A DNA stretch of 64,000 nucleotides, from the NCBI GenBank assembly GCA_002245135.1, contig NGBS01001165.1, positions 124,001 to 188,000 on the forward strand. The letters are read 5' to 3'. The number at the start of each line of letters is the position of its first letter. The first letter of the stretch is position 1. Source of the stretch: Proteromonas lacertae (taxonomy: Eukaryota). Positions 1 through 63,187 of the stretch are shown piece by piece. The notes below the pieces were generated by a model, which was given only the letters and a program-made list of their open reading frames with translations, was not told the DNA's origin and did no database searches. Made by a program: the position numbers and the translations under genes.

Positions 1-2534
1 TTTCGTTTAAAGTGAGTTATATTAGTGGAATAATAATACAAATAAATGGAAAAGAGATATTTCGACATAATTTGCCTGATGGTGATATAACTCCAGATAC
101 AATGGCAAATAATATGTTTGATGTAATGGACAGATGAAGTGTTTATATTACCATTGTCATTTTTAGAAGAAGAAATAGGTAATAATAACAATCGAATTAC
201 ATAAACATGAAAAAGAGACTAAATTCCCTGAAATCAAAACATATTTATTGAGAATAATTGGAAGTGAAAAAGATTGTTTGATATTAAACAAATACACAAA
301 TCCAGTAACTGAAACTAATACTATAGACTATTCACCTATAACTAAAATAAAATTCGGTTTTGATGAAAATCCAAATTCACAATGGAATACAGAATTATCA
401 ATGTCAGGATGGCTAATAATGAGATTTCAAGATCATTTCCATTCTCATTTTAATCAATTCAGTATTGATGTAGTAGAAAGTCATCAAGGTAATCCTGAAA
501 ACTTTTCACTAGAAGGATATAGTCAAGAATATAGTAATTGGAGTAATATTGGCGAATATGAAGGTATTTACTTTTCAGAAATCAAAAGAAGAGTATTTTC
601 AAACTATAAATTATGCAATATATATTGTGCAATTCGAATGAATACAACAAAGTTATATAGTTATAGTTATCTACTAAAAGTGTATGATATTAATTTCAAT
701 TTATGTCCTTTAAGATATTGTGAAGCAATAGATAATATTTCACTTCCTAAAACTTTAAGTGGGAGTGAAATAACACTTCCATGCAATAATCACACTTTAG
801 AAGGAGAAAGAACATTCTATTGTAGAAATGATAAGAAATGGATAGAATTATTTTCAACATGTGAAGAAACACCATCACTTATTTATCAAGAAAAGGAATA
901 CACCTTTATAGTTGGAGAATACTATAAAGATATCAGTTTATTTAGTGTATCAGGAAAAGATGTTCATTATTCAATGCCTCCCGAAATTGAAGGATTGAAA
1001 TTGAATAGTAGAACAGGATTAATATCAGGTAAACCAAATAAAGAACAGGATCAGCAGACAATAGAGTTCAAATTTTGGAGTGATTATTTTATAGGTACAA
1101 AAACAATTGAAATAAAAATAACTGTATTACCATCAGATAGACTTGTGTTATTATGGAAAAATGAAACAGCTGAATTGGAAATAGGTTATGAATATAAAGA
1201 TTTAAGATTATTTGATGTATCTGGAAGAAATATAACCTATTCAATTGATAAACTACCAAATGGTTTAGTAATGAATAAAGCAACAGGTTTAATAAGTGGA
1301 GTAAACTTGAGAGAATTGCCAGTTGAATGTAAAATAACTGCAAAGAATCAATATGAAATAGGATTTGATGTAACAATTAAAATGAATCAACCAAAATATC
1401 CAATAATTATTAAATATGAAGAAGAAGTAATTTTAACATTTGGAATGAAATATGAGTCTATACAACCATATGAATGTAGTGGAAAATCATTATCATATTC
1501 AGTTGAACCAGTATTACCAGATGGCTTAAGAATAAATAAAAATAGCGGTATAATAAGAGGAATAGTAAATGTTGAACCACCATTAGATATTACTCATACA
1601 TTCATTTGTTATAATGATTATAGAAATATATCAAAATTAATCACATTTCATTATCATTATTCAATAGAACCTATAATAATCTCACATATTGATAATTTGA
1701 CATTAGAAGGTGGTAAAGAATATGATAATATTACCTTAGGAATAATAACAGGAAGAAATTTGTTATACAAAATTACTCCAGATTTCCCACCTTCATCAAG
1801 ATTGAAACTGAATAGTTCAAATGGAATAATTAGTGGTTATATTACTCGAGAATTTAAACCAATGAGTTTAACAGTAATAATAAGTGGTAGAGGAAAACAA
1901 GTGTTATTTTCATTCACTTTATTCTCATCAATAGCTGATAGTCCAATAATAGTTCCATCTACAAGAGTGTCAAGAATGAAATATACATTTGGAGATATAA
2001 TAAAATCATCTTATTTGTTTATAACATCAGGAACAAATCTTGAAATATCAGTAAGTCCAGATTTACCAAAAGGTATGATATTAGATTCAAGAACAGGTGA
2101 AATCTATGGATTACCTTCAGTATATGTAGATAAAAGAAATTACACATTTGCAATAAAGAATCCTCCATCATTCGAATGTAGAATTTGTAGATATAGAGAT
2201 AGAATTAGAAATAATCTATTGTGAATCAGATTCTGGCTTTCCTAAATCATCAGCTGATAAAAGAGGAAGAGAAATCTCAATAAAATGTGGAGGACTAAAA
2301 AGTGGAATAAAAATAAGAAAATGTATATTGAATAAAGAGAATAAAGGAATATGGAGTGAAATAGATGATAGTGATTGTAAGATAAACAGTGGAGCAGTGA
2401 TTGGAATTGCAATTAGTTGTGTATTTGTGGGAATAATGATAATATTGATGTTGATATTCTACTTATTAAAATCAGGAATGTTTAGAAAGAAAGCTAGATC
2501 TTCATCTTTAGTTGATAATGAAAAAATGATTTAA
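1..2534 (+). pseudogene. Type I membrane surface protein with He_PIG-like Ig repeats; 5' partial; frameshifted
   Basis: Repeated LP.GL..N..TG.ISG motifs in ORF 248-2224. C-terminal TM helix (AVIGIAISCVFVGIMIILMLIFYLL) and short tail in 2328-2534. Coding sense continues across frame changes near 130, 178 and 2162 (LHHSNVEFVDIEIELEIIYCESD... leads into the 2328 frame). No introns seen. May be intact if the shifts are assembly errors. Confidence 0.7.
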
Positions 2535-2788
2535 ATTAATGTATTTGTATCTGAGTTAGGCAAAGAATGTCCTTTCGACTTTGCCCTTTGTTATCTCTTT
2601 TCTAATAAATAGTAAATATTATCATTCACTAAGGAATATATATCAATATAACTCATTATACTCTTGCTTTACTATAAAATTAACAAAAATACATCTTATT
2701 GAAGAATAACTATTTGAATAATGAGCAAATAGCTTATACGATCTATTATGTACAATCTTTATAAAATATAGAATTATGATTATAATTA

Positions 2789-5601
2789 TTATAGTAACTC
2801 TAAAACAAAATCCTTTCCATAAACTTCTTGCTCGAATTCTGATAGATAATACTTTAAATCAATCTTATCTTCTAATTTTTCTATATTAGGTTTAATATCT
2901 ATTACTCGATTGAAGTGTGATATGAACTTATTTTCTTCTTTTGATTGTTCAGAAGTTTTGCCTTTTGAACAAACATAAATATAATGAAAATTTAACCAAC
3001 CAATTTTCATTGACAGTTGCATTATACATTCATCAATTTCACTATTACACTTTCTTTTTGCTTCGCTTATATCATTTATTACATGAATGAAACAGTTATT
3101 CATCATATAAATCATTTCTCTATTCTTTAGAGTGGCTAAATGCAATAAATACACTCCTTTCCTCTTAGTACAATATATATCTACATTGAATAATTTTCTA
3201 AATATTTCAAATTGATTATCATCGATTTCTTCTAATGGTATTGCTACATCCTCTGTATTATATAAACAGTTGTAAAAAACTAGCTCTACAAATAACAATT
3301 GAAATAGTTGATGATCTTTTTCATTATAAATACTCCTAAAAATTTCCTGAATTTTATCTACATCATCTTTTTCAGCTTTGTGTTTAATATTATAGTATAT
3401 AAAATCAAATACATCATCAGATATAAACTCCATTTGATCTTCATTAATTCTATCATAATATTTGGTTGTTTTCTGGTTATTTTTATATGGTATAGAGTAT
3501 TTCACTATATAATGACATGATGTACTATCAAATGTTGTTCTTCTTAAAGATATTTTATCACTTTTAGATTTATTTGGAAATAAATATTTCATTAGAAATT
3601 CCATATATCCAACACCGCCTATTATTCTTTTAATGCCTATTGAGTATAATTCATCCCAGTAATCTTTATTATAATATTTCTTATAAATTGCTGAATAATA
3701 GATATGTCTTGGAACATTTCCATATTTATTATTATATCCATTATCTATAATTACATTTTTCAATTCATTTTGCAAGCATTTTTCTTCCCATTCTTCAATT
3801 TCTTCATTACTAAATACATCCATAAAATAACATATTCTATTAGGATTATCTTTAAAAAATTACCATAATTCTTGCAATCTGGTGAAGTAATATATAATAT
3901 AATTGAAGCATTTGAAGTTCTAAAATCTAAGTTAAATGAATCTGATATAGCTATATCAGAGAATTTAATATCATTTAATTCACACATTTTTTCTCTTTCT
4001 AATCGGTATTTATTGCCAAGTTCGTTATCTGCATTTTTAAATACTGATGTTTCAATTTTCAATTTATCATCACTAATTCTTTTATTCAATTCAATAATCA
4101 TCTTCAACAAGAATATTATAAAGGAGGTTTTACCACATCCTGGATTACTTCTTAATAGAATCTTAAAACATTCGCCTATTTCGAATGTACCTTTTTTTTC
4201 TTTTGAATTTTTTCCCCTAAAATTCTATTGTTCAAATGGTCTAGCACTTCTTTTTTCTTCTTATAGTCATCGATCTTATCAATATATTTTTTATATATTA
4301 TTACGCTTCTTTTTCTATTCTCTTCATTATCTTCTTTAATACATTCATTTATTATTTCGACAAATGCATTTATCATATTTACATTATTACAATCATATAA
4401 TATTTTAACAAATAATATGAAATATTTTAATTCATTCCATATATTTTTATAAACTTGTCGAATATACACTCTCTTTTCAGGATATTGATATATATCACAT
4501 CCCATACTTATTGTTTTATCATCATTTATAACTACTGATTTTTCAAATATTCGACATAAAGAATTAGTTTCTATTATTAGAATATTATATTAATATAATT
4601 ATACTAGTACAAGTTAAACAATAATCTTTTAGACTTCCTTTCATTGTTTTAATTGCATTATATGCACATTTCAATTCTTTAACATACACCTTTTTAGCAT
4701 TATCAAGTGATTCAATCTTATTATCTTCATTTATAGTAAGCGTCAAATCTGTTAAAACAGTAGTAATATCCTCTTTACTAGCATCATTAGGCAATTCAGA
4801 TAAAAGCTTTTCTATGTAATCTTTACTAGCATTAACAATTAACATATATAATATTCTACCAAACTCTTTATTAACATTATAAAATGATATTAAGTCATTA
4901 ATATTCTCTTCTTCATTATCATCAACAAATAGTCTACAATGAACAAGTAGTGATGATAGTAAAATATTAATGCCATCTTCATTAATATATTTAGTAAATT
5001 TAGAAATATTTTCATTTATGATGCCCTTATCTATATCTATATGTAATTTTAATATTAACTCTTTAATTGCTTCACTTGGTAATTCAGCTAATAATCCATT
5101 TAGTAATTTCTTTTTATTCTTTTTATTTATAGGAAAACATAATTGAGATTGTACTATCCCATCTATGTAATGCTTAGTTACATCATAAGGAAATGCTGAT
5201 ATTATTTTATCAATGTATTGCTTAGTAGGTAAACTCAATCCAACAAATTCTTTCAATTGTTTTACTTCTTTTTTGTTTTCATCTAGAACTATACTTTCAT
5301 CTATTACCATACATGCTTTTTTAATTATATTTATAATATGTATGGTTTGATAATTTAATTCCAATTCACTTAAATTATTTACAAAACTTTTGTATGTGTT
5401 TATAGTTTCTTTTATAATATCAGTTTTACTAGTTTGATTAACCAAAATACTATCATTAAATTTCTTAATCAACTCTTTAATATCTTCTTCATCGTCAATT
5501 ATCTTTTTTATGGGTTCTTTAATAAGTAAATCTGAGTATTCTTTTGGAGTGGTAGTATATCTTTTCATTTTAGGAGTTTTAAGTTTTGAATTATCAAACA
5601 A
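2789..5601 (-). CDS. Crinkler/RHS-like module B, copy 1: helical N-region + P-loop NTPase + degenerate nuclease-like C-terminus
   Basis: ORF 4585-5601 splices (intron 4571-4604) into 4176-4505. Then, across homopolymer frameshifts (~4195, ~3855), it reads LLRSNPGCGKTSF, ITSPD, GNVPRH, FISDD, LFVELV. Colinear with 15948-17683. Start uncertain; may be fused to module A through a shift at ~5728. Confidence 0.7.
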
Positions 5602-5714
5602 TTTCTTTATGGTAATTTTTAAAACAGAACATCTAAGTCTTTTGGATTTTATAGATATGATTATATCTTCTGGTGTAATTCTTTTATCATTTTTATCTTT
5701 TTCATCGTTTTCAT

Positions 5715-8700
5715 CTACCCTTGTCTTTTTTTAGGCGGTTGATTATCTTCATCTGTATTCCAATAATAAGTTTTCTCCATTTCTTTTATCATTTCATTTT
5801 TTATTCTTATCCCATATGCTTCAAAACCACTATTACCTTTTACTAGTGGAGTTTTAACTTCATCAAGATCATATGAAAGAATTACTATTTTAAATATTGG
5901 ATTACACATATTCAATTCCATCTTTAATTTATCTTTTAAATCATTATTTTTTACAGAACCATCATCATTATAGATTTGGTTGAGTTCTTCTTTAATTAGC
6001 TATATAAAATAAAAATAATAAAATAATATACCTTAATAATTGTTTGTTTAAATCTTTCTTTTTGATCATTCTCCAAATCATTATACAAAGTATCAATAAT
6101 ATAATCATCTATATCTTGTAACAACTTTGCTTTTATTTCAAGATTTAATTTCACTACTTCATTTGCTTCTTCAAGATCATATATATTAAGGCATTGGAGT
6201 TGGTATTGTAATAAAGCATATTTATCATATAAACATTTTGATTTTTGAAAGACATCTTCAACATCAGTTTCTTCTTCCATTTCATTATTATTTGTTGAAT
6301 CTTCAGTAGCTGATTTAAACTTTGCTAATTTTTGTAAAAAAGTACTTAAATATGATAATAATACTTCACCGTTATCTTTTAATGTATATTGTTTGCAAGA
6401 TAAATATAACTGTAATATATTATCTATTGTATGTTGATTACTCTTCCAAAACTCTATTTCAATACATAATTGTTCAAGTTTTGTTAGATTTTGGCATTCT
6501 TGTAATTGTTCTGATAAATATTTTAACTGTTTTTTAAACAAGAACAAAAAATCATTCAATTCAGGAATTAAGTCATTGTAAAAAATAGTTAACTCTTCCT
6601 GTTGTTGTCTTAACATTCTTAATTGGTTTTGTAATTCTTGTATTAAGTTTGAATATTCAGATTTATCTAATAATTTCAGATGGTAAGAAAAGAGAATCTC
6701 TACTTGAGCTATTTGCTTTGGTATTTTATCTTCTAATTCATTTATTTTATCACATGCTTCATTCATTTGGGTTTGAACAGATTTTGCTTTTATTATTTTT
6801 TGATTTGCTGCTAATATTTTAACACACAATACTATTGATTTTGTTGATTCTTTTAATTGTATATAACATCTATCTACTATATTTTTAAAAATCTTTAATT
6901 TGGTTTTCATTCTATATGCTTCAATTGGTTTAATTTCTTTTTCTGGTTTCTCGTTATCATCTGTATTTGGCCGTTTTAATGGTATTGATAAAACTAACTG
7001 ATTATCTCCTGATTGTTTTGGTTTTTTGGCTTTTAATTGTTGTTTATATTTATTTATTTTGTCATCTAATCCATGAAACTGTTTTGTGAGATCTTTTAAT
7101 TGCGTATTTAAAACTTTAACTCGCTCTTCTAACAGCTTTGCATGCTGATTATTACTTAACTTATAGTGTTTAATATTATCCATTATATCCTTTTCTCTAA
7201 TGAGTAATTCACTTTCTAATTTTTCAAACTCTATCGTATCACTATCCAAAATTTTCAGGAATTCTGTCTGTCTTTCAGGACTATAGTTTTTAATTAATTC
7301 AGGGTCAATGTCATTTCTACGACTAAGTTCATTGATTAAAAACTATAAATAATAGAAATAATATACTATATTATACATAACTTTCACATAGGATTCTTCT
7401 ACGATGATTCATTTCGAATATTTTATGTCTTTTAAAACTGCTTGGTATATAACCAAGTTCATAAAGTGAAGATTCTCGTTTAAATTCTGTTGGATATGGA
7501 TCAATAGTGGTTTTACTAGTAGTAGGTTTCTTATTAGGTGGATTTAATATGTAGTCTATCATCACATCTTTATGATGATTGTATATCATCTAATCAAATA
7601 TAATAGTATATATAAATACATTCAGAAATACAATTATTGTATTTATTATAGAATGATCATCAGACATTGTCATTTGAACAGATGTAATATTGAATTTATT
7701 GATAATACAACCATCTATTGCTGGGAAATCTTTAATATTACCAAAATCAATATACAATGCATCGACATCTTCAGTATTCTCAACACCACTCTTCTTATCC
7801 TTACTTCTCTTAATATAATATTCAGATTCAGAATTTAGATATTTGTCAAATCTTTCCATATCATAATAATAACATAATTTTTTAGGAATGAATATAATGT
7901 TATTATCTAGTAACTTATCTTTAACTATAATATGACACATTCTTTCAAATATAATTCCTTCTCTTTTATACTTAAATATATCATATAATTCTTTTAATCT
8001 ATTTTTACTATTGAAATACCTTATTAAAATTTCTCTTTCTATTTTCTTGGATTTAAACTTTAATCTATCTGCAACTTTATCTACCCTATCAGTATCATAT
8101 ATATAAATACTTTCATTGTACTCTGGTGGTATATATGTAGGTAAAATATATTCATTTACATTAAATGAGTTGTTATTAATTTTATAGCTTTTTACACTCA
8201 ATTCTTTGTCTATTCTTTTACTGAATTTCATTTCTTCTGGTGTGAGAGGTAGTAAATAAAATTGTACTGGAGCTCTTTTATAACTCATAACTTTGTACAT
8301 CCTTGAGTTTGGAGAAGATATCATAATTACTATCTCATCATTACTGTAATCATCTTCTTTAATGGGAAAGTTGTCACTAATTATTATTGTTTTTCTATTA
8401 GTAAAAGGCAGCTTTTCTGTAACTTCAAATTTCACACCAAAAGATTCTCGAAATAAATATGGCGCTTTGGATAGTTTTAAGTCACTGAAAAGAACAACAT
8501 TATATTCATCGAAGTCTTTATCCATGTTAAAACAATACGCTAAAAAACAGCTGAAAGTAGTTTTACCTATTTTTTCATTACCATACACTAAAAAGCATTT
8601 TTGATATTTAGATCCCTTATGTTCCATAACTATTTTCTTCATCTCACAGTAAATACGAATGAAGCAATCTCTAACTAAAATGAAAGGGTCCATACAATAA

Positions 8701-8789
8701 AAAAATGTCTTACCATTTTCACCAGTCCCTTCCACTAGTTTTATTTCATTTATATCGTCATATACTAAAGATTTAGATAATGACTCCAT
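5715..8789 (-). CDS. Crinkler/RHS-like module A, copy 1: P-loop NTPase + PD-(D/E)xK-like REase + long coiled coil
   Basis: Walker A FLVYGNEKIGKT, IMISSP, GIIFE...DFPAIDG...VQMTMSDDH. In-frame splicing through introns 7590-7619, 7343-7376 and 6000-6031 joins ORFs 7590-8789, 7371-7589, 5996-7249 and 5715-5921. Confidence 0.75.
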
Positions 8790-9272
8790 AACTGAATAAA
8801 CAAATTATCTATAATTATCAAAGATGAATGTAAAGTCATTAACTGAGGCTTATCAAATAATAGCTGTTTTAATAAACACAAACTATATCAACTTAAGAAA
8901 TGAGAAAATGACATTCTTTATTATCATAGGTTGTATTACATGGACAAAATATACAAACTGTGAAATAATAGTTTAAATCTCTTCTTATTAATAAGCTGGT
9001 AACTCTTGCATATGAAATTAATTTATCACACGTAAAGTTAATTGAAAACAGTTTTACTTGTAGATAACTTTACTATCTACTCTATATCCAGCAAATAGTA
9101 GAATACTATTACTATTTTCATTAATTTAGATAATTTTCTTTTCTCTATTAATAATCTATATTTTGATTGTTTATAATATGATATGAATATAAGTTAGAAT
9201 TTATGGTTATTTTTTAATAAAAATTTTCATAAACCTAATTTATTATTTTTGTTTTGCTTAATTATTTGATCT

Positions 9273-12200
9273 ATGCAAGGTGAATTACATATTACAATAC
9301 TTAGATGTCACAATCTGCCTATCATGGATAAGAAGAGACAAACAACAGATGCGTAAGATTTATCTTTATTCATTATGTAGATTTGTTCAAATTATTCAGA
9401 AAAATAAAGTTCTATTAACTACAAAAACGGTAAAGAATTCATTAGATCCAGAGTGGAAAGAACCATATACTTCAGCCTGTTCATTGAAGGATTTAGTGGA
9501 TGATCCTTTTGTAATTAAGATATTTGATGATCGATTGGGAAGTAGTAAGTCCATAGGTGTGTTACCACTTGATTTATCGTTGATTATAAGAAGATTACCA
9601 GAATCAAAAATGAAAGATCACAAAATCAGTGGTTCGTTTCCTATATATGACTGTCATGAAGGTATTCGTGGATCAATAGAAATAGAAGTGTCAATTGAAA
9701 GTCTATCTGAAGCTGATGTATTAATTAATTGTCTATATGTGTATATATATGAATAGGAAAAAATCATATCATTTTATCATTCATCTGAACTCTATTTAAA
9801 ACCAGAAATATACAACAAAATGGAAGACATTGATGAATTTGTCGAAGAATTAGTAGTTGACACAGATCCTGAGTATAAAAATGATTGGGGAAATTATATG
9901 AATACCTCACGTTATACAAATGAAAAAAGACAATTAACAATGTACAAATTAACGTATATATTATTACAGTTATCATTTAGATGTGAGTTGAAGAATAATA
10001 TCAGTATGAGAGCTTTAAAGATGAATTGTGATATTGTATTAGGTTATAGACAACAATTTGATGTTGAAGGTGATAGTGGTTTAGTATTGAGAGGATATGG
10101 TAATTTATGGAAGTATACATATATATATATATATATATATAGAGTTGGATGTGATAAAACATTTTCATTAGATGATTATTCTACTACTGATGAGTATATT
10201 ATATATAACTTATTATATATATAAATATAGTAGTAGAAATATTCAATTATTCCCATCAGCAAATTCAATAACTTCTGAGAAAGATCAAATTAATAATAAT
10301 AATAGTCTCAAATTTGAACCAAGTGTTTATATACCTGTTGATATTAATGATATTAGTTTAAAATCTTGTAATTGTTCATCAACAACAGCATATCAATATT
10401 GTGGATTAGTTTCATGTCGTAGTATCAAATACTTAGTATATATAATTTATATTTTATTTATTATTATTATATAAATAGGGTAAATTACAAAGTGATGAAG
10501 AAGATGTAGAAACAAGAGATGAATGGTGGCATGAAGTAAGACAAAACTTAAGATTAACAGCAATGCAATTACATGGTAATTCAATTAATGGATATAAAGA
10601 AAATGCATCAATAAGAAGAGATGTGTGTATAATGTCTGTATATGGAACTGCTGTTCATGAAATGCCTTCATTTCCATATCCATGTTCATGTGTATTATAT
10701 TTATATATTATATTATTACATAGTATCATGTTGCTCAAGATTTTCTCAATACATTTCCCTATAATTCAATGAATTTAAGTAAATGTAAATTATGTAAAAT
10801 AGCCTTTGTTCCTGAAGTATTAATATCCACAATGGAACCTCCAAATGAATTTTCAACAAGTAATGCAAGTTGTTTGATAATGGTAAATTCCATATTACAA
10901 TTTGAAGATGAATCTGATAGAGAAGAATTAGCAAAAGATTTAACAAGACATATCGTGAGTATAGAATCAGAATTATATTCAAAATTGTTATTTCAATTAT
11001 CATTATACCAAAAGAATGCTGTTTTTAAGTATAAATGTGATATTCAAGTATATTTATTTGTTGTTTTATATTATATTTAGCTTGGTGATGGTATACTGAT
11101 TGGTGTAATAACAGGAACAGGTGTATTATTAACAGCTTTACCAGATCCAAAACCATTATCAATTCGTTTTATAGAAAACTATGAGAAGTATAACAGTAAA
11201 CTTGAAGAGTTGACTAATTACTATAAAAACTATAAAAGTATTTAATTAATATGTATTATATATAGATCCTGAGACTTGTTTATATGCAATTGATGATAAT
11301 GCTTTAATTTCAACTTCAAAATCAATCAATACTCCATTCAGTAGAGTAAAATCTAATTATTCAAAAGCACCAGATACTGAAGAAAAAGATGATGATGATG
11401 AGACTCAGAAAATACCTTATTATAGAAAAGATTATTTCAAAATGAATGAAGAAAGTATTATACAGATGATAGATCAAGCAGAAATGCAAAGAAAATATAA
11501 TTGTATAATATAGAGAGTTTTTTTTTTTTATAATTGTTTCAAAATAGATTGTCATATTTGTACAACACAAACATGTCCAGGAATAAAATGTATTTTGAAC
11601 AATGGGAAACATATAACTACAATGAACAGTATAAATTTCACACCAAGTAATATAAATAATGAGTTTAACAAATCTTTTCAAGAATTGTTACAGAAAATTC
11701 GATTTACAACAACTCCAAAAGTATAATCTCAATCTTATATATATATATATATATGAATAGCAACAATGTCGATATGTATTAGGTTTTGATTTAAACTTCA
11801 GATTAGTATCAAACCATCAAATGTTAATATATTGTTCAGCCAGTGAGATGAAACCATTTTGTGATTGTGATAAATATACCACCACCACCACCACTAAACC
11901 AACTGAATCTCTATCAATATCGCCATTATCATATGTATTAACTCCAAGCCCAGAGGAAGTAGATGTAGCTGATATAGCAATCAATATAAATAGAAATGAA
12001 TTTAAGATTAAAAAGAGTAAGTTTTTAAATGATATTAAAGATGATAATGTGTATTTATATCAATCTACTAAAAATTCAAATCGTGAAGTATTAGAGTATT
12101 ATGGATGTATTAATATACACCTAATTCGTGAAGCAAAATCAATTCAGGTGGATAAATTATCAAGTTTTTATCATCAATTTTTACATGAAGTAAATCAGAT

Positions 12201-12449
12201 AGTCAAAGCTCATGTTTTAGCAGTTGGAGGAAATGCTGTTATTTGTTATCAAGTAAATATAGTAATAATTTATCATTTTTATAGATTTTAATGACAGATT
12301 CTGGTAATGTAGCTAATTTGGAAAGTCAAGAATATATAGTTGTAAATGTTTCAGGTGATATAGTGAAACTAAGCGAAAGTAAAGATTTGATGAAATATTT
12401 TCAAATAGATGATGAAAATGATAATAGATGTGTTGAACTTGATAAATAG
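9273..12449 (+). CDS. C2CD5: C2 domain-containing protein 5-like (multi-exon)
   Basis: Spliced N-terminus MQGELHITILRCHNLPIMDKKRQTTDAFVQ (C2 domain). Also EELVVDTDPEY, VLGYRQQFDVEGDSGLVLRGYG, TRDEWWHEVR and C-terminal AHVLAVGGNAVICY...VNVSGDIV. Last intron 12253-12284; stop TAG 12447-12449. Confidence 0.9.
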
Positions 12450-12480
12450 ATTTGATTATAACAAATAATTTGGCTAATAT
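12254..12480 (+). repeat. Direct repeat copy 1 (227 bp): last intron, last exon and 3' flank of C2CD5
   Basis: Matches 17826-18053 except for one substitution and one 1-nt indel, by eye. Confidence 0.97.
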
Positions 12481-12709
12481 ACAATTTTTTTACTCATTTA
12501 CTCATAAAATTGGGTTAGGTAAGCCATCAGTTTTTGTATACCAGCAATATTTATTTATTTTCGTTAAATTTATCAAAATTCAATAACTGAACATATTTCA
12601 ATTATTTTGATATATATATGTTTAGATTCATACCTGTACATTTATATTCTAAATTCTTCTATTTCTTCTATTCACTAATATTACTTGAATTTACTTCTAT
12701 TCACCTGAA

Positions 12710-15700
12710 ATGAATGAGGAAATAATAAATGATTTAATGAAATCACTTCGTGTAACTGAAAAAATACATTATCACAAAGTAAGTGATAATATACTTAAAG
12801 AGAGGGGAAAAACCCCAATAGTATTGAATCCAGCAAAAGAAGGTGAGGAAAACATAGTTACTGTGTCTCTCACTAAAGATCGAAAGTTTATTCAAAGAAG
12901 CTGTTACAATGAGATATATGAAGATATAAAGAGATATATGGATAAGCCTCATCCAAAACAAAAGAATTTTTTGGTATATGGTAATAAATTTATAGGTAAA
13001 ACATATTTTTGTGTTTATTTACTGAATAAATTTTTATCAGATGAATATAAAGAATGTAAGGTAGAATATAAATATAAAAATGATACTTGTTTTTTAAAGT
13101 ATCCTAATTCATCAGAATATAAAAGAAAGAAAAGTGACAAAGAAAAACAAGAATGTAATATCAAGTCTATAATAATCAGTGAAAGTCAACCAATAAGTGA
13201 AGATGAATATAGTGATTTTGATGTTGTTATACTTGTTACATCTCCAATATTACCTATTTATAAAGTGATGAGATCCAAAAGAGCTCCAATACAATATTGC
13301 ATTCTTCCATTTGATATATATGAAATAACTGAGTTTATGAATATGAAAATAATTGATGATAAAAGAGATATTTATGAAGGAATTCCAGGGTTTTATGTTA
13401 ATAATTTAAATGAAGAATGGGGAAAAAATGATGGCAAAATTGAATATTATATGAAAAAAGAATATGATGAATTTGTTTTTATATATGATGTAGAAAAAGT
13501 TACTGATATACCTAAAGTAGTAAGATTTATATCTGATGATATTAGAAATGAAATAGAAGAAAAATTTTGTGTTGATATACACAATTATAATACATATTTT
13601 AAACTTATAAAAGAAATAATGGAAAAAGATATTGTTGTGAAACAATTAGAAGCTGATAAAGATAGGTATAAAGAATTTTGTGCCTTAAGAAATGAAAAAC
13701 TGGGAAGTGAATGCGGTTGGTTTTATGAGCATCTGGTTATGTGTTTAAAGATGTTAAATGAAGAAATTGGTAAAAATATTATAAACACAGAATGTGAATT
13801 ACTTCAATTAAATCAAAATAGAATGAAATTACCATTATTCATAGATTGTTCATTTATAAAAGATTTTCCAGCTGTTGATGGAATTGAGATTAATGATGAA
13901 TGTATAAATGGTTATCAAGTAACTGTAAGTGATGGTCATGAAACAGTGACAACAATTTCAGTATTGTTTAAAGTAATATTCCAAGAAACACTTGAAAGAA
14001 GAAAAGAAAAAATGAAAGAAATATGTAATGAATATATTATTAATCTGAAGAATATTGAAGGTTATATTATAAATAAAAATAATGTTGTAGAAGAAGATGA
14101 TAATAATAATTATAAAGAGAAATTAGATGCAGAAATATCAAAATGTGAAGAATATAATGAAAAATTATTAGATCAAATATCAACTAATTTTTATTATTGT
14201 GGAGTATATATATATATATATTATAATTAATATAGTATACACCTGAATCAATAATGAAAGTAAGTGATTTTGAACTTGAGAAGAATGATTATATTATAAA
14301 AGAAAAAAGAATGAGATTTACAAAAGACACATTTGATGAAATTGAAAGATATATAAAAATTGAGAATATAAATGAGAGCAATATTGATGAAGTTATTAAT
14401 AATATATATCCATTATCAACTGAAAGTAAAAATATTGCTAAAAGAATTAAGTTAGATAATAATGCAAGTTTAAGATATGAAACAAGATGGAGACTAATGA
14501 AGTTGATAAGAGATGCTGAAGATCATGCTTATGATCGATTAATTGAGATAAAAATTAGAAAGGAAACAGATGCAGATAAGCAGAAAGAAAAGATACAAAA
14601 AGAAATAAAAAGAATAGAAGAAAAAGATATAGTAATAAAAACAATAAAAAAAGAAATAAAGAATGAAATGAAAGTAGAAAATGATGATATAATACAAGTA
14701 ATAAAGGATAATAAAACAGCTATAAATTATAACCAAATGTTTAATATGTTAATTAAAAGAATTGATGATTATTGTAAGGATTATAATAATCCCAGATTTG
14801 CAATAACAATGATAAATCCTAAACATAATATTGAAAAGGATCCTTCAAGTAGTTGTAGTCTTAGTTCATATGGAACAGAATTGAACAAGAAATTGACTAA
14901 GTATATGAGAAAAATATATCCTGGATATGATGACATGAGTGCTGACAAAAAAAAAGAAAAAATTAGAGAAATGTTCAATAGAGTAGAGATAAGAAGTGAG
15001 ATAATCAATTACGAACAAATAGAAAAAACCAAAATTAACAATCCACATTTAAATGAAAATAAAACATTTTATGGAAATGACAAAAGAAAAAAATTAGGTA
15101 TTGAAGAGAATAGTATAAACATTACTAATGCTTTGATATCCCAATTAAAAGCAAATAAAACATTGAAGAGTTTTTTAGATTGTAATTTTATAACCTTGGA
15201 TATATCAAATATGTTATGTGATACATTCGAAGAAGGAATAGAGAAACTTAATAAAATATTAAATAATTATGATTGTCCAACATATTCAGTTGAAGTTGCA
15301 GAACCCAAATTAAGAATTAGATTAATAAAAGAAGAAAATGGAGAAATAAAGTTAGAAATAATAGAAAGAGATAGTGATGATAATTTTTATGAATATGATA
15401 GATTAGAGAATGAAATTAAAAGAATAGGAAATGGTGTAGAATATGAAATAAAAGAAAAATTAAAATGTAGTTATTGTAATGAAATAGAAACTATAACTAG
15501 AAGATGTAAATATGTGTTTGGATATATAAAGAATGTGAATGAAGTAAGTAAAGTTGTTATTCCAAATAGAAATGTAACTTTCTATTGTGAGAAATGTAAA
15601 TCAATAACATATTGTATAGCAGAATATACATGTGTTAATAATATATATGGAATTGTAGTAACTCCCTTTAATGATAAATATGATATTTATGATACAAGTC

Positions 15701-15777
15701 ATACAAATATTTCACAACCAATAGCAACTTTAGATAGAAATAGACATGCAATTCCAGTTACTCCTGTCAATATCTGA
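12710..15777 (+). CDS. Crinkler/RHS-like module A, copy 2: NTPase + REase + coiled coil + CxxC..CxxC zinc ribbon
   Basis: FLVYGNKFIGKT, ILVTSP, YKVMRSKRAPIQY (copy 1: YKVMSYKRAPVQF), GWFYE...DFPAVDG...YQVTVSDGH. Intron 14204-14235 joins ORFs 12710 and 14254 in frame. CSYC and CEKC near the C-terminus. Confidence 0.8.
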
Positions 15778-15785
15778 TATTCGGA

Positions 15786-17683
15786 TGAATCTACCTCCAA
15801 ATAATCCACCAATTGATACAGAAAGAACCGGTGAGAGTAGAAATGAAAATAATCCACCAATTAATACAAATAATACTCCTTCATCTACATTAACTACTAG
15901 ATCATGTATTATATTCATATATTTATAATTCAATAGCTTTTGATTATATGAGATTAATATTTAATAAAGATGAAACAGTTCCTAAGTTTGTTCAAAATGA
16001 AACCTTCATAGAATTAGATAATAGTGTGGATATATTTCAATTTCCAATGAAATGTGTATTAGTGAGAGATTTCTATAAACTCTACTGGGAAAGAATAAAA
16101 AGCAATATATTATACAATTTGTTATGTCAAAATCTAGAAAATTATAAAATAGAAAACTTAAAATCGATATTTAATTATTTGAAAGTCATTTATGAAGAAT
16201 CAGATTTGAGTAACAAAGAAAAAATAATACATATTGTAAAGGAAGAAAAAGAAAAATTAAGAAGGATTATTAACAATTATGAAGAAGAAAAGATAAAAAG
16301 TAAAATGAATGTAATAACAAAACAGAAAAGTTATTTTCTTTTGAGAGGTCAGCCAGGATGTGGAAAATCCTCCTTTATAATTTATTTTATAACCAAATTC
16401 ATTGAACTGAAAAATAAACTCAAAATTGGTAATTTAAGTTTTACATATATTAAAAGTTCTAAGAAAGAAGATAAATCAAATCCTGACAAAGATAAATATC
16501 ATTTAAAGGATAATCACTTAGAACCATTAAGTATAGGTTGTGATATAGTTATTTGTGATTCAAATAATATTTCCGCTGATGAGTTTAATGACTATGGAAT
16601 AGTTATAAATGTCAGTTCTCCAGATAGTGATAATTATTCATTTATAAACAGATTTAAAGGTAAAAAGATCTATTTCTATTTAGATATTTGTAGTGATGAT
16701 GAAATAGTGAAATGGAAAGATAATTGTTTACCACCCGAATTAGGCAAAGTAATTGATAAGTTTCTCCCATTTTATAACAATGTTCCAAGACATTTATATT
16801 TTGCAGCAATATATGATGTTTATTATGATGGAAGAAGTTATTGGAATGATATATATACCAACTGTATAAACACAATAGTTGCAGATATGGGTTATTATGA
16901 GTTTATAAAGAAGTATCTCTGTCCATGCCAAAATGAAAATAATAATTTAGAAAATGACAATGAATTATATAAAAATGATGTTATACAATATGATAGATTT
17001 GATACAGATTTATCACATTATATATTAAAATATAAAGTCAAAAGTTATGATTCAATTGATAAATATCAATTAGAATTTGTTTCAAAAGAAATATTTAGAT
17101 ATGTTTACAATTGTGTAAGTCATAAATTAAGTAGAAAAGAAATTCAATTATTACATGAATATTATTATACAGAAATAATAAACAATCAAAATCATCCTTT
17201 ATATAGAATATTATTCAATGAATTAGTATGGTATAGTATAAATCATCATAAAAATTGGAAAGATTATGGAAGTGAAGTGTTTGATAATAGTTTAAGAACT
17301 ATATTTAATGACTTTAATAGATAATTGTTGTAAATCAGAAGCATTAGAAGAAGGTTATTATGTTGGTGATTTTTTGCATTACTAATGTTGATGATGTTTT
17401 TTATTCAATTAATAATGTAATAATACATCCATCAAATAACAACAAGAGAGATGAAATAATAGATAAAAATATTTATGATAGATTGATAGAATATCATGAT
17501 GCAATTGTAAAACCTATATATTACATTATAGCAACAAATGATGATATAGAAAAGGTCTATTCTGAAGAAGCATTGAAAAGATTTGTTGATTTTCAGAAAT
17601 TACATTCAAATAATAATGGAATAATTATATGCAATGTTTCATTAAAAATTGATTCAATTAATATTAAGCGACTATGTAATTGA
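15786..17683 (+). CDS. Crinkler/RHS-like module B, copy 2: P-loop NTPase + degenerate C-terminal domain
   Basis: ATG 15786, intron 15906-15936, then LRGQPGCGKSSF, IVICD, VSSPD, NNVPRH, FVSKEI, LFNELV. The C-terminus continues only through frame changes at ~17315 and ~17372. Start uncertain. Confidence 0.7.
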
Positions 17684-17825
17684 AGAAGAATAATTAAGTT
17701 GTTTGTGATAATTACTTTTATTATTATTATTATATACTTTATTACTAATATTTTGTGTGGAAATCTTACAAAATCTAATAACAAGAATAGAAACGCTTTA
17801 TCTTAAAAAATCATGTTTTATACAA

Positions 17826-18053
17826 TAAATATAGTGATAATTTATCATTTTTATAGATTTTAATGACAGATTCTGGTAATGTAGCTAATTTGGAAAGTCA
17901 AGAATATATAGTTGTAAATGTTTCAGGTGATATAGTGAAACTAAGCGAAAGTAAAGATTTGATGAAATATTTTCAAATAGATGATGAAAATGATAATAGA
18001 TGTGTTGAACTGTGATAAATAGATTTGATTATAACAAATAATTTGGCTAATAT
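17826..18053 (+). repeat. Direct repeat copy 2 (228 bp): orphan copy of C2CD5 3' end
   Basis: Near-identical to 12254-12480. It lacks the G of the splice donor and has an extra G (gaactgtga versus gaacttgat). Confidence 0.97.
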
Positions 18054-18184
18054 TAGGATTTTTTACATTTTGTTGCTGAATATATATCTTATTTATTGCG
18101 AATTTTGTTATTATGATTTTGATTACATTTTTATATATATGAAAGAATAATTTCAAAAATATATTCGTTATTAATTAATAATAC

Positions 18185-19304
18185 ATGGTAATACAATAGT
18201 ATTATTGTATTAATTATTTTTTTATTTTTATAAACGAGATAAAGTTCTCTTCTGAAAGTAAAAGCAATTTCATAGAACTGACAGCTGGAATTGTATATAT
18301 TCATTGTAATATTATAGGCTTCTGGCGTTGCTTGTAGATTGTTCGAATACCCTTTTGATACAATAAAGGTATTACAACAATTATACCCAGTATGAATATT
18401 AAAAATATAATTGTATAGAGACGTTACAAAAGTTTCATAAAGTGTTCTGTAGATGTTTGGGAACGTTTTGGAATTGTTGGTTTATATTGTGTATGATATA
18501 CTATAATTATTATTTTAGGGTTTGTCTGGTTCTTGTGTTGCTTCTGCATTGGAAATGGCAGTAACTTTTGTTAGTTATGGCATTTCCAATAGAATCCAAG
18601 GAATAAAAAGTATGAAATAACAAATTATAACATTTTAATTAGAGGATACAGATTTGACAGTCAAAGCAACAATAATATCAAGTATATTCACCAGTTTTAC
18701 AGTGGCAATGGTGTTAACTCCAACCGAATTATTGAAGTGTAGGATGCAAGTATAATAATCGTCATCAATTATCATATAGATGCAACAATCTGTTGATGCT
18801 TTAGGAATACCTCGACATAGTAGTACATTTAAGCTATTATTAGAAGTATTAAAGAAAGAAGGTATAAAAGGATTGTATCGAGGAAATGTTGGTATAATAT
18901 TAAGAGATATACCTGGGAATATTGTGTGGTTTGGTGCTTATGAATGGGTAGCTAGATTATTCTTGAAAAAAGGACAGACCAAGAAAGATTTATCATTGTA
19001 CCAAGTGTTTCTTGCAGGAGCAGCAGCGTATTGTTATAATTATTATAATGTAATAATAAATAGAGGTTTTGCATATGCAACTGTTCCTTATTCTATTGAT
19101 TCAGTGAAAGCGCATATTCAAACAAATCCAAAGTTTAAAAATAAGTCTTTTTTGGAAGTTTTTAGATATTTATATAAAAGAGATGGTATTATTGGTTTGT
19201 ATAGAGGATGGTCGATTACTATACTCAGATCAATGCCTGTAAATGGAATATTGTTTTTGGCATATGAAGAAACAGCACAATTATTGAACAAGCTTCTTTT
19301 TTAA
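18185..19304 (+). CDS. Mitochondrial carrier (SLC25), ornithine/carnitine-type
   Basis: Spliced YPFDTIKV, TPTELLKCRMQ, GIKGLYRG, GLYRGWSITILR; three-repeat carrier layout. Start inferred (ATG followed by an intron). Confidence 0.9.
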
Positions 19305-19469
19305 TTTACATTTTTTTCACCTTAATATATAGATAATATTTACTTATTTTAGTTGTAATAAATTATATTTGTGGGTAATATAAATGATGCATTATATGAT
19401 AATTAATAAAATCAAATAAAATGATGTTTTTAACCATTATAAATAAAGTAAGAACAATGTTATAAAATA

Positions 19470-21422
19470 ATGAATATTTCAATTTGTTGTGATGATTTAT
19501 TAAAGCATGAAGATTTAAAGGACATTGAAATTTATGTATACGATATATTATAAGTGTATAGTATCTGGTAAACAAGGTTATGAAGCAAGCGGACATAGAA
19601 GATGATGATAAACTGCTATTAGGAATACAGAAAGATTATGATATGGTTTGTCTATATGGTATTGTATTATACATAATAATGATAGAAGCTAAATACAAAT
19701 ATTATGTGTATTTGCTCTATCAGAGTATCTACACAGACTTTGATAATATCGGGTTGGAAAAAGGAGTAAAAGTATAACTCTGCTCTATTAATGAAATTAG
19801 GTTGGAATTTACTTAAGTGGATTTGGTATATCAATAAGAGAAGTGTATATTTTGTATTTTAATAATATCTAAGTAAAAAATGTTCAATTACTATACCAGT
19901 ACTTACTATAACTTCAAGTGAAGTATCAATCAAATACGAAATTTTATATAATCTACCAAATTTCCATAGTATACTATCAATACATATTTAATAAATAGAT
20001 CCAATGGTAATAATAAACAATAAAGAAATACAAAATCCATCTAGAAATAGAATACCATCACCAAATTTTAATTTAACTCAACCAATGAAAAAGATTAACG
20101 AAATTCAAGAAAATGAAACAATATATGGGTTTATAGGAATAATTACAAGTATATCTTATATTAGAGAATCACTACGTATGAATATATACAAAATATAGTA
20201 TTAATTTAATTTATAGAAGACAATTATTTAACAATCTCAGTAATAGATCCATCAGTAAATGTCTCACAAATTATAAATATTTTCTTTTCAAAGTCTTCTA
20301 TTCCTCCGCAAATATTCTACGTAGGAGATATAATTTTTTGTACTAGTATGTCATCTAAATTATATAATAATAAAGTGGCATTTACAGTGAGAGGAAGATG
20401 TAGTTATACAATAATTCATCCAGATTATACAATTACTAATAGTGGACAATCTATATATTATATGAATAAAACAATATGGGAAAATATTTCTAAACTCTTT
20501 GATTATTCAAATATATTCTTTTCATCTCCGCTTTATTTAGATATAGGACTAAATATACATATTGAAAATATAACTGAACAACAACAACAACAACAACAAT
20601 CAGTTGATTTAATAGTGAAACTATTAGATATAAAAATAATATCAAAGTTTGATGGAAGTAAAAAGTATTATTTCATTATCTGGGATGGATCAGGAAATGG
20701 TACAACTCAAATATTATCAAATCGTGTTGAATATGCTGATGATATAAAAATGGGAAGAATAGAATCAATTTTAATAAGTAATGAATCAATATTAGAATGT
20801 AATCGTTTTATAAATAAAAATGATTGGATTAAACTGAGAAATATATATATTATTAATAATAAATCTAATACTGTACAGTTAGAATATAGGAAATCAAGTA
20901 GTTTATTAATATTTCACAAATCAAATCCAATTGTTGAGAGAAAGAATAAAGAAATTGAAAAATTATCACTATATTATTGTAGTGAAAACGATAGAATTAA
21001 ATATTTACCTTATTCGATTGTTAAAGATGATTTTAAATATGAATATAGTAGAACATTTTCTTTAAATCAAATGATAGAAAGGAATATCAGTTTTACATGC
21101 AAATTGATATGCAGAGTTGTTTCTTCTTCAACAGAATTAAATGAATTATACTTTTAAAAATCCAATAGGACAAGATTTGTGTTTTGTTGTAACAGATGGA
21201 ATAGAGGATATGAATATATGTTTGAAAGGTGTGAATTTTTATTACTTTTTCAATATACCTTATAATATAAAACAGTGGAACAGTAAATTAGTAACAAAAC
21301 TTAAATCTGATGTATCCTTCCTACATAATCCAATGGTAAATCTTGAAATTCTATGTGAATATAATGGAAATAAAGACAAATTGGTAGAATGCATAAATAC
21401 TCACTTAATTATAGTTAATTGA
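19470..21422 (+). CDS. POT1: POT1/TEBP-alpha-like telomere ssDNA-binding OB-fold protein
   Basis: OB1-like GFIGII..ISVIDPS..PQIFYVGDII and OB2-like VDLIVKLL..FIIWDGSG. Multi-exon 5' part uncertain. Apparent extra T at ~21152-21155 before the last segment. Confidence 0.65.
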
Positions 21423-21969: not shown

Positions 21970-24200
21970 TCAAAATCCTTTTGCTGCCTCTTCCATTACG
22001 TAATCAATTTCTTCTTGTAACATTGGAGGAATTCCTTTAATTTTTACATCTAAAAATCCACGAATAATGATTGAAACAGCATCTTCTTCTTTTATACCAC
22101 GAGACATTAAATAGTCAACTTTTTCTTGAGCAATCTTTCCTACTGCTGCTTCATGACTTAATTCACAGTCATATCCTCCTTCAATCTCTGGAATACTTCG
22201 AATTATTCCTTTCTTCAATACCATTCCCTGGCACTCAATATGTGCTGTAGTTTTAACACTTTCACTTACCATTCTACCTTTAGCAATAATTGTTCCTCCT
22301 TTTGTTAAAGCACGAGTTACAGATTCACTACTAGTTCCTGGAGCTTGTAAAAAGGCTGTACTACCAATATCTAATACACCTCCTTCATGAGAAACTAAAA
22401 TGGAACTAAATCGAGCAATAGCATTTTCACCAACCAAAAATGCAGTAGGATTCATTTGAACTTTGTTTACTGGATCTAAACACACATAACTTGAAATAAA
22501 TGTTCCATTCTTTTCTACTCTACTGGCACTTCTTGGATAAATTGTGTAATTTAAACAATAATTATGAATCATTGAAAATGATAATTGAGCATCTTCTTCT
22601 ACATAGAATTCACTTATTCCATAATGTTGACCATTAAATCCATCTGGTAAAACATCTTCATCTCTTTTATTACAATATCCACAAAAACTAGAAACAGATA
22701 AACAACTTCCCTTTTCAGCTATAAGTATATTATGAACATATTGAATTGATATTTGTTCCATTAATAATTGAGCTTTAACTGGTTTTAGATTCTTAGCACC
22801 TTCGTGAGCAATTATAACATAACCATTATATATAGTCTTTTCATGTTCATATACTGCTTTTGTATAATCATCTTTATCAAATGAAATGTTTCTCCACAAA
22901 TACTTCTCTTTAAAATCTGGATATTTCTTTATTGCTTCAGCTAACTTCAATATTTCAATTCCTTCTTCATTACTATCTATAGTTGACACTAAATCATTAT
23001 TTATTTGTTTATATTCACCATTGAATAAACTTGGATCTTCTAATGAAACTTTTACTTTTTCTATTTCTTTTGTTTTTATTTCAGGAAGAGATTCTAATGA
23101 GTTTATATCACTAATTGAAGGAGGACGATCTAAATCATCTTCTAATAAATTTATAGTTACTTTCTTGCTTTTATTATCAGTTATTGTAGTTTTATTTTCT
23201 ATTTTATTCTTTGATAAACTACATTGACATACATGATCTTTACTATTACCTCCATTCTGTTTACATAAACACATTTTTCCTGGATATTTCCCACATCGAC
23301 ACATTTTATCAAGATTATTACCATAGCTACAATCTTTACATACATTCGATATTTTATCTACATGATTTCCTACATCAATCAATTTCGAATCTTTATCATA
23401 TATACCTCCTAGCCTTTTTAAACATTCTTCATAGCCACTTTCTTGAATTACTTTTAAACATTCACTAGCATCACCACATTCATTTATTCTGCCATTTAGC
23501 ATTATATGACTTATTGAAGCTTTTAAATACGATAGAATATGACCTGTATGAGTTATAACTAAAGCACTTCGACTCTTTTCACTTCGATGTATGATATTTC
23601 GAATAGAATCACCAACTAACTTCATATTCTCTAAATCTACTCCACTTTCTGGCTCATCTAACATTATAAACTCAGGATCTTGTAGATTCAATTGTAGTAT
23701 TTCACATCTTTTCATTTCACCTCCACTAAAACCAACATTCACATCTCTTTCTAAAAACTCTTTCATATTACTCTGTTCAGAAGCATTGTTAATGTCGATG
23801 TCATCTTTGTTTTTACCAAATGCAGTCTTAACTAGAGTTTTCAACTTTAAACCTTGAATAGATGGTGCTTTTTGAAACATTATTCCCATTCCCAAGTTTG
23901 CACGATCACTGATACTCATTTCGGTTATATCTTCACCCATAAAATATATTTTGCCTTTTGTGATTTTATAACCGCTTAAACCCATCAATACATTCAACAA
24001 AGTGCTTTTGCCACTTCCATTCTGACCTAATAATATATGTACTTCTCCCTTGTTAATTCTTAGATTGATATCATGCAATATTTCCTATAAACATTACAAC
24101 ATTTACTCATACCTTGTTATCACACTCTACACACAAATTTTGAATGTCTAATACACAGAAATTCGATGCTACAATATATAAAAACTGTTAGAATACTCAT
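21970..24200 (-). CDS. sufCB: Fused SufC-SufB Fe-S cluster assembly protein
   Basis: ABC ATPase motifs GQNGSGKST, GFSGGEMKR and LDEPESGVD, fused to SufB-type C-terminus (AHIECQG, LSHEAAVGKI, YLMSRG). Two short 5' introns give MTSNFCVLDIQNLCVECDNKEILHDINL. Confidence 0.95.
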
Positions 24201-61757: not shown

Positions 61758-61930
61758 TGTAACAATATTTTAATAGCATTTATTGTATTTTTTGTTTTTA
61801 AAGAAGTATTTTTTTATGCGATTTTAGAATTTATATATTTATTTCATAAATGAAACATTTTGATATAAAAATTTAAAACCAAGATTTTCATATAAAATTC
61901 CACTATACCATATTTACTGATTTATTTTAA

Positions 61931-63187
61931 TTAACAACGAGTAATTTGTGACAAATCACTTACACCAGCTGTATTTTGTACTCTACCAGCAGCACCTAAA
62001 CCATGACCATCAGCACCAAATCTTGCCTTGTGAGCACCAGTATATTGTGAACTATCAGTTAATTTGTCGAAAATGCTTCCCTTTGTCTTAGCATTTGTAC
62101 CACTAGACATTGGACCAGCACTCTTTAAGATTTTAGCTTTAACTAATTCAAATCCTTCATCTGGTGATTTATCTGGGTGTAACTTCTCAGCAGCCATATA
62201 AATAGCTTTTTCGAATTGTTCATAGGTAATTTTACGTTGTCCTTGTAATTTCACCTTTGAGAAGATCAAATCAACACCAGTTGCACTTAAAGCGCTGTTA
62301 ATCAATTTACAATCTCTGAATAATTTAGCGAATTTAGCATTATCCATCTCTGGAGCAGCACCTCTAGCACCAAATGCACAGAAATTATTGAATGCATCTT
62401 TCAATGAGTTAGCGCTTTCACCTACTGGCTTAGCTTTAGTAGCACTTGTTCTGGATGTTCTCTTTGGAGCTGGAGCAGCGGATGGACTTACAACTGTAGC
62501 ATCAGCACCTGCAGCAACAGCTTGTGCTCCTGTAGCTGGTTCATAAGCAGTAGCAGCAGCAGCAGCACCTCCTTGTGGTGGTGGAGCAATACCTGGAGCA
62601 GATTGGCAAACAGCAACTGATGAAGATGCAGCTGTGGCTGTTGGAATACCTTGAGCTTTTGGACCTAAGTTATTACGGGTAATTTGTGATAAATCAGAAA
62701 TACCACCTGTATTATCAACACGACCAGCAGCACCCATACCATGACCACTTTCATCGAATCTTGATTTGTGAGCACCGGTATATAATGATGTATCTGTTAA
62801 TTTATCTAAAATGCCACCTTGATCAGCTTTCACTGAGTTGGTTACTGGACCATGACCAGCACAAATAGCATTGATCAATTGGTTTTGAGCTTGTTCTGGA
62901 TCAACTCCTGGATATTTCTTTGCAGCCATTTGTGGAATAGACTTGTTTAAGAATTCATTAAAACCGATTTTTCTCATTCCTGGAGCTTTTGATTTAGTAA
63001 AGATAAGATCAATATCAGTTTTTGTCAATTTCTTATCTAATATCTTTGTATCTCTTGCAAGCTATGGATTATAATCTAGATGTTGATATACCTTTGCGAA
63101 TTTTGCATTATCTAATTGATTATCACCACCGCCTCCTGCACCAAAACTAGCGAAGCCAATGAAGATTTGTTGAAGCTGTTGTTCCAT
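61931..63187 (-). CDS. TPPP/p25-alpha protein with two tandem p25-alpha domains
   Basis: Two copies each of DNAKFAKL.RD..DLIF.K.K and LTD.S.YTGAHK.RF...GHG.GAAGRV; one intron near 63063-63091. Confidence 0.93.

Follow-up and report, generated by a model that had tools for sequence, protein, structure and literature searches.

The window analysed here is a stretch of 64,000 nt from Proteromonas lacertae (assembly GCA_002245135.1, contig NGBS01001165.1, positions 124,001 to 188,000) in which a 5,345-nt insert (12481-17825, + strand) lies between two nearly identical copies of the end of a host gene, C2CD5. The insert is a Crinkler/RHS-type (CR) gene in which two STAND-like nucleoside triphosphatase (NTPase) modules, A and B, flank a middle region of 513 codons; since no donor copy is known, its ends are uncertain by a few bases. 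A second CR cassette, overlooked in the first-pass annotation of this DNA, lies inverted on the other side of C2CD5. We consider the structure around the insert to be real and unusual, and best filed as a eukaryotic variant of insertion accompanied by a long duplication of the target.

A CR gene between two copies of the end of C2CD5

C2CD5 (9273-12449, +; start placed by eye) has many short introns and carries the Pfam domains C2, YbjQ_2 and YbjQ_4. Its single database homologue is a stramenopile C2-domain protein (E = 2e-9). The GC content of the window is about 25% and its predicted introns are 28-40 nt long; for Blastocystis, 30-nt introns and lineages with 21-23% GC are described in the genome paper (PMC12129017). 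Together with a SufCB fusion elsewhere in the window, the low GC and short introns would fit an AT-rich stramenopile similar to Blastocystis. The last C2CD5 intron (12253-12284, 32 nt, GT-AG) is followed by a last exon of 54 codons (12285-12449). The left copy of the repeat (12254-12480, +, 227 nt) begins at base 2 of this intron, spans the exon and reaches 31 nt beyond the stop codon, whereas the right copy (17826-18053, +, 228 nt) is an orphan last exon that lacks the G of the splice donor. Local alignment gave the same bounds as the first-pass annotation and the same two differences: one substitution, which falls in the intron part, and one 1-nt indel, which shifts the stop of the right copy two codons upstream. 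In a self-blastn of the window the pair scored E = 1e-112 and was the only long near-identical repeat; the next-best repeat was 140 nt long, 79% identical and internal to an unrelated gene. It is within these 64 kb that we judge the duplicated host sequence to be unique.

C2CD5 is whole despite the insert, as the left copy completes the gene. With the exon of the repeat included, a stramenopile C2CD5 of 1702 residues is aligned up to residue 1702, an end point that was equalled by 4 of 1000 exon shuffles. Together with the Pfam domains, this alignment confirms the proposal that the repeat is made up of the final exon of an intact C2CD5, the intron before it and the 3′ flank after it. A host mitochondrial carrier (SLC25) gene (18185-19304, +; Pfam Mito_carr) starts 131 nt past the right copy. 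When the insert and one repeat copy are removed in silico, the C2CD5 stop lies ~170 nt before the SLC25 start, an ordinary gene order.

Module A (12710-14203, +) is an open frame with a leader of ~50 residues, a STAND/Orc1-like P-loop NTPase and a predicted restriction-endonuclease-fold domain. It is followed by a predicted phase 0 intron of 32 nt (14204-14235, +, GT-AG), removal of which joins module A and the middle region in one frame; the intron interrupts a G-Y-x-P motif that is uninterrupted in the corresponding module of the upstream cassette (A′) and in the CR protein P0012. The middle region (14236-15777, +) comprises a charged helical stretch and then two CxxC pairs near its end, a possible zinc ribbon (15420-15700, +), and had no family match in Pfam or NCBIfam. 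Its frame stops at 15777 with another frame already open, leading to module B. The Pro/Asn-rich leader of module B contains an internal duplication of ~20 nt (15798-15870, +), and a predicted phase 1 intron of 31 nt (15906-15936, +, GT-AG) precedes the module itself (15937-17683, +), a second CR-type NTPase that has a probable intron at 17290-17320 and loses its frame near 17345-17375, where there are six T in a row. The insert's reading frame is broken twice. The earlier description of only two Crinkler/RHS-like modules between the repeat copies holds for the type of both modules; it has to be amended to include the 513-codon middle region and to place a nuclease motif in module A alone.

The absence of terminal inverted repeats (TIRs), poly(A), reverse transcriptase (RT), DDE transposase and tyrosine recombinase, asserted before, was upheld. 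Searching the insert for TIRs gave none (291 of 300 shuffles scored equally), no poly(A) was seen, and neither Pfam nor NCBIfam returned a match to RT, DDE transposase or recombinase. The insert ends form no hairpins (z −0.2 to 0.4), there was no Pfam match to a Rep (HUH) domain in the window and no Pfam or NCBIfam match to a methyltransferase in the insert, and 0 Rfam RNAs were found in 2000-20000. We tried and rejected tandem arrays at the junctions and base composition as evidence of a foreign source: third-position GC is 0.13-0.16 in the cassette, and in the seven host regions whose frame was correct it is 0.12-0.20 (an eighth was dropped for a wrong frame). Thirty nucleotides inside the left end of the insert is a GC-rich patch (12512-12519, +) with the telomere-like hexamer GGGTTAGG, which occurs 4 times on the same strand, probably by chance.

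Relatives of the modules and the upstream cassette

Twelve proteins, about 28-38% identical to module A, came out of a full HMMER search at E up to 0.001, and a profile search added two typical NTPase-nuclease proteins. Ten homologues were looked up; nine come solely from sequencing-run assemblies and one from Stygiella. A word-index protein search with module A yielded 0 of 7909 candidates. Locus scans for relatives with an 8-row alignment gave 473 pattern matches in JGI metagenomes, 485 in IMG/VR and 318 in GTDB, none of them confirmed, and the same was true of the 280 matches from a scan of the JGI metagenomes for the duplicated exon. In the Atlas, module A lies next to a cluster named Crinkler (0.98; 13% of its members bear RHSP) and to one named RHS (0.93). 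Module B lies next to RHS (0.95), and for both modules the recognition scores are under the tool's 2300 mark.

Both modules have a Walker A motif, and module B is a distant paralogue of module A (hhalign probability 97.5). A structural model of module A from 17 rows (predicted local distance difference test, pLDDT, 60) matched AVAST5, Orc1/Cdc6 and NLRs at Z 9-10 over residues ~5-240; the corresponding two-sequence model had a pLDDT of 39.6. Foldseek with the module A model gave a best E of 1.5e-3 and nothing at E 0.001, and a PDB sequence search with module A gave nothing under E 0.069. In the tail of module A, E295, P342, D345 and T360 are invariant in 17/17 aligned rows and H365 in 8/8. This E, P-x-x-D, Q-x-T, H motif is common to the relatives and to P0022 and P0023, and its residues may form the CR restriction-fold active site. 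The model is too poor in the C-terminus of module A for the missing nuclease-fold match there to count as evidence against the fold. No nuclease motif was recognised in the tail of module B. The ~50 residues before the NTPase of module A had no Pfam match at E 0.1, and because it has no header domain module A is not a canonical CRN effector.

In a 15-row tree, module A, A′ and eight unnamed proteins fall into one subfamily (support 100/99), with A and A′ as sisters in the best tree (support 56/29) and an end branch of 3.15 for A against a median of 1.12. The insert belongs to a new, header-less tandem CR subfamily, and the proteins closest to it are unnamed ones from sequencing-run assemblies. 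The unnamed CR subfamily of P0001-P0009 and P0012 stems from such assemblies, and almost every member has an intron-like tail at the same column; these tails probably correspond to a conserved intron in AT-rich eukaryotes with small introns. Seemingly, 15 of the 17 aligned rows have an intron just after the nuclease motif, a count inferred from predicted-protein tails in which four rows are near-duplicates and DNA was seen for A′ alone. Module A is without this intron, possibly through one older intron loss.

The upstream cassette (2789-8804, −) is an older paralogue with the layout A′-middle′-B′, situated 3.7 kb from the insert and head-to-head with C2CD5. It has at least four predicted introns, and its frame is broken three times, each time within a run of 6-8 bases. 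At the protein level A′ is 29-32% and B′ 35% identical to the insert's modules, and middle′ (4585-7342, −), a long helical region without a family match, is unrelated to the middle region of the insert. The intron before B′ (4571-4604, −) has the same phase and position as the intron before B; therefore both cassettes were likely copied as DNA since they split. The CR family is multicopy and fast-evolving here, with two cassettes in 64 kb at 29-35% identity and with unrelated middles. No other CR frame was found in the remaining 46 kb of the window.

Origin of the insert

We propose that the locus records the recent insertion, at the DNA level, of a CR gene, in which break repair made a long target duplication, and we give this reading about an even chance. 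A break at the 3′ end of C2CD5 would have been followed by host repair that copied in the CR cassette from a donor elsewhere. The 227 host bases that lay between the points of joining would have been duplicated, with C2CD5 left whole. Either two widely staggered nicks would have been filled in, or one break would have been mended by synthesis with template switching. If the insertion reading holds, the likeliest single source of the break would be the predicted nuclease of module A itself, to which we give somewhat less than an even chance; the same source has been proposed for bacterial restriction genes whose insertion leaves long target duplications. The near-identity of the repeat copies (2 differences in 227 nt) suggests that the insertion is recent, and the retention of the predicted introns points to a DNA route and not to spliced RNA. 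We infer that it was the cassette that arrived, rather than the repeat. One event accounts for both junctions and for the repeat of unique host sequence, the limits of the repeat are arbitrary with respect to the gene (intron base 2 and 31 nt past the stop), and module A is open, with Walker A and the invariant residues kept.

Several observations weigh against this reading, beginning with the fact that the evidence comes from one locus only. The nuclease part of module A is modelled mostly at pLDDT under 60, and fold matches are confined to residues 7-229. The Walker B motif of module A has Glu where its relatives have Asp. Unless they come from sequencing errors, the two frame breaks would be surprising in an active element that had only just been copied. 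The weak A/A′ sister grouping (56/29) suits an old local pair. The first-pass annotation had looked to homologous cassettes for locus-specific long repeats and shared ends, and neither was found at the upstream cassette: it is without a flanking direct repeat (78/300 shuffles score equally), and neither of its ends is common to the insert (254 and 137 of 300 shuffles score equally), though at 29-35% identity it is too old for a fair test of flanking duplications. It is also without a flanking inverted repeat (127/300 shuffles score equally).

The proximity of this related gene, 3.7 kb away, keeps alive a second explanation, which we consider unlikely. Here the cassette would have long belonged to a small cluster of CR genes around C2CD5, and nothing would be recent but a 227-nt templated copy of the exon, which repair involving two template switches would have put into a break 5.3 kb downstream. 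The presence of a same-layout relative so close by, with no further CR frame in the rest of the window, speaks for such a cluster, as do the weak grouping of A with A′ and the frame breaks in both cassettes. However, a same-strand copy would have to end exactly at the cassette's left edge and land exactly at its right edge, 142 nt past the stop, and the two cassettes are too distant and their middles too dissimilar for a recent local duplicate. The initial proposal of a recent insertion with a very long target duplication is supported in part: the repeat and the intact C2CD5 speak for it, and the related gene nearby leaves the resident cluster as a live rival. Were the cluster explanation true, the locus would be an ordinary repair scar beside a new CR subfamily.

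The junctions themselves carry three faint similarities. The 8-mer TATACAAT lies over both the left (12478-12485, +) and the right junction (17819-17826, +), a weak and post hoc observation; this is met by chance in 0.9-1.8% of random AT-rich pairs, or in 5.9% under a looser rule, and the 8-mer occurs 19 times in the window versus 12.7 expected. It might mean that slightly more than one turn of a circular donor was copied. The insert's first bases resemble the host bases after the right copy (null 0.02-0.04), and once the right copy is left out, the right site and the left junction are alike along ~16 bases with a single gap (null 0.006-0.02), which a short duplication of older date might explain in the case of a resident cluster. 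All of these similarities are post hoc, rest on T runs and reach p 0.006-0.06 at best, which tells against the insertion reading and against the cluster alike. They fit, weakly, both a donor circle copied for slightly more than a full turn and the short, older duplication, and do not decide between the readings.

The frame breaks bear on a further explanation, an assembly artefact, in which a two-haplotype mosaic or a misjoin wrote the exon end twice and both differences between the copies are heterozygous sites. Of the five frame breaks of the two cassettes, four coincide with a single base repeated 6-8 times, a pattern known from long-read assemblies with imperfect polishing, and Blastocystis isolates are described as diploid in the genome paper (PMC12129017). 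We nevertheless regard an artefact as quite improbable: it requires two clean false joins 5.3 kb apart, single reads would span the 5.8 kb if the assembly is a long-read one, as the error pattern suggests, and the host genes on either side read through normally.

The first-pass annotation went further and saw in the cassette a candidate new mobile element, which the window does not establish: 0 of 1 other copies, the upstream cassette being the sole one within reach, has a flanking repeat or shared ends, though that copy is very old and offers no fair test. We consider it doubtful that CR genes in tandem and without headers make up a class of eukaryotic DNA elements able to move in the absence of a transposase, a recombinase or RT. 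In such a scheme the STAND-like NTPase would load the restriction-fold nuclease, which would cut with a wide stagger; a DNA copy, perhaps circular, would then be joined in, and a target duplication of hundreds of bases would spare the host gene. On this view the insert would have arrived lately and the upstream cassette long ago. If true, the two would represent, in living form, the transposons that have been proposed as the source of Crinkler and RHS effectors. Having an insertion scar but no helper element, the CR gene of the insert offers a case in which self-driven spread can be tested directly.

Several genes elsewhere in the window deserve mention in their own right. An intron-free open frame of 704 aa (21970-24084, −) encodes a SufC-SufB fusion, an archaeal-derived gene; the fusion has been reported from Blastocystis/Proteromonas, Pygsuia and Stygiella (PMC6857552). 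The gene at 179-2535 (+) encodes a surface protein that combines several immunoglobulin-like repeats (He_PIG) with a membrane helix at its C-terminus, and changes frame near 2155-2190, outside base runs. The gene at 20210-21157 (+) has a weak POT1/CDC13-type telomere-binding match (Pfam E 0.013). The protein encoded at 61928-62814 (−) contains two internal repeats of ~50 codons that are 77% identical, presumably a tandem p25-alpha/TPPP domain.

Comparison with known systems

CR proteins have been proposed to descend from prokaryotic NTPase-nuclease pairs tied to transposable elements, and reports have them riding Helitrons or TIR elements. A review describes the combination of NTPase and restriction endonuclease (REase), the link to prokaryotic mobile elements and clustering with Helitrons (PMC5289972). 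Module A shares with these proteins the order of P-loop NTPase, helical linker and REase-type motif, and its family is likewise multicopy and evolves fast; unlike CRN effectors proper, it has no ubiquitin-like (LxLFLAK) or other known header, and the insert has two modules around a variable middle. In the portions of the literature available to us we found no published report of a CR gene with a long flanking host duplication. In the available portions of the Blastocystis genome paper, "Crinkler" occurs 0 times in the text and 12 supplements and "RHS" 0 times in the supplements (PMC12129017). AACRNL, a Crinkler-like teleost gene, is reported to have been spread by flanking TIR elements of the hAT/mariner type (PMC12957317). 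It is likewise header-degenerate and behaves as a selfish, copying locus, but it has an ADP-ribosyltransferase and hAT/mariner TIRs, and neither the domain nor a TIR is present at the insert.

Spread of CR genes beside Helitrons (PMC5289972) and hAT/mariner elements (PMC12957317), as those reports have it, is in keeping with one more explanation, that the cassette was carried by another element's enzymes, either through target-primed reverse transcription of the long interspersed element (LINE) type or by a Helitron or DDE element acting in trans. LINE-type target-primed reverse transcription can give long target duplications; those reported for two RT elements in eukaryotes are 126 bp for R9 and a median of 900 bp for Dualen (PMC9977147). 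AT-rich Blastocystis isolates contain 0-20 RT, 0-49 Helitron and 2-39 Tc1 domains. We hold carriage to be very improbable in this case: sense-strand introns are kept, one of them at a site common to B′, poly(A), TIRs, terminal hairpins and a short duplication of the target are all missing from the insert, and no such element lies within the 64-kb window. R9, Dualen and Replitrons resemble the insert in their long or variable target duplications, which in their case come from distant nicks. They differ from it in encoding RT and endonuclease (R9 and Dualen) or an HUH Rep (Replitrons); the insert encodes none of these and keeps its introns.

Among eukaryotic element classes we rejected a non-long-terminal-repeat retrotransposon (no RT, no 3′ tail, introns kept), a TIR/DDE transposon (no TIR, no DDE transposase, no target duplication under ~10 bp), a Helitron or Replitron (no Rep match, no end structure above shuffles) and a Crypton (no tyrosine recombinase; the junction 8-mer is only a weak likeness to Crypton termini). 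Helitrons and Replitrons have a 3′ hairpin and fixed terminal motifs.

In bacteria, genes for restriction-modification (R-M) insert in the absence of any other mobile element and leave target duplications that are long and variable. The reported repeats range from 45 to about 420 bp, the insertions were shown against empty sites, and double-strand breakage has been suggested as their common cause (Furuta, Abe, Kobayashi 2010, PMC2853133). The insert shows the features by which R-M-type insertions are recognised, i.e. a direct repeat of >30 bp of host sequence, a length of <20 kb and no mobility gene. As in those insertions, gene(s) with a nuclease fold, a predicted one in the case of the insert, lie alone and over less than 20 kb between long direct repeats of unique host sequence, the repeat can overlap a gene end, there is no transposase or integrase, and 227 bp falls within the reported range. 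Unlike them, the insert resides in a eukaryote, has introns and an NTPase partner and lacks a methyltransferase, and it is not an R-M system but would at most operate in a similar way; whereas R-M insertions were seen against empty sites in other strains, the insert is known from one assembled sequence. A long target duplication makes insertion at a gene end harmless, and the repeats allow loop-out or amplification by recombination. The insert would extend to a eukaryote the bacterial mode of insertion with long target duplication.

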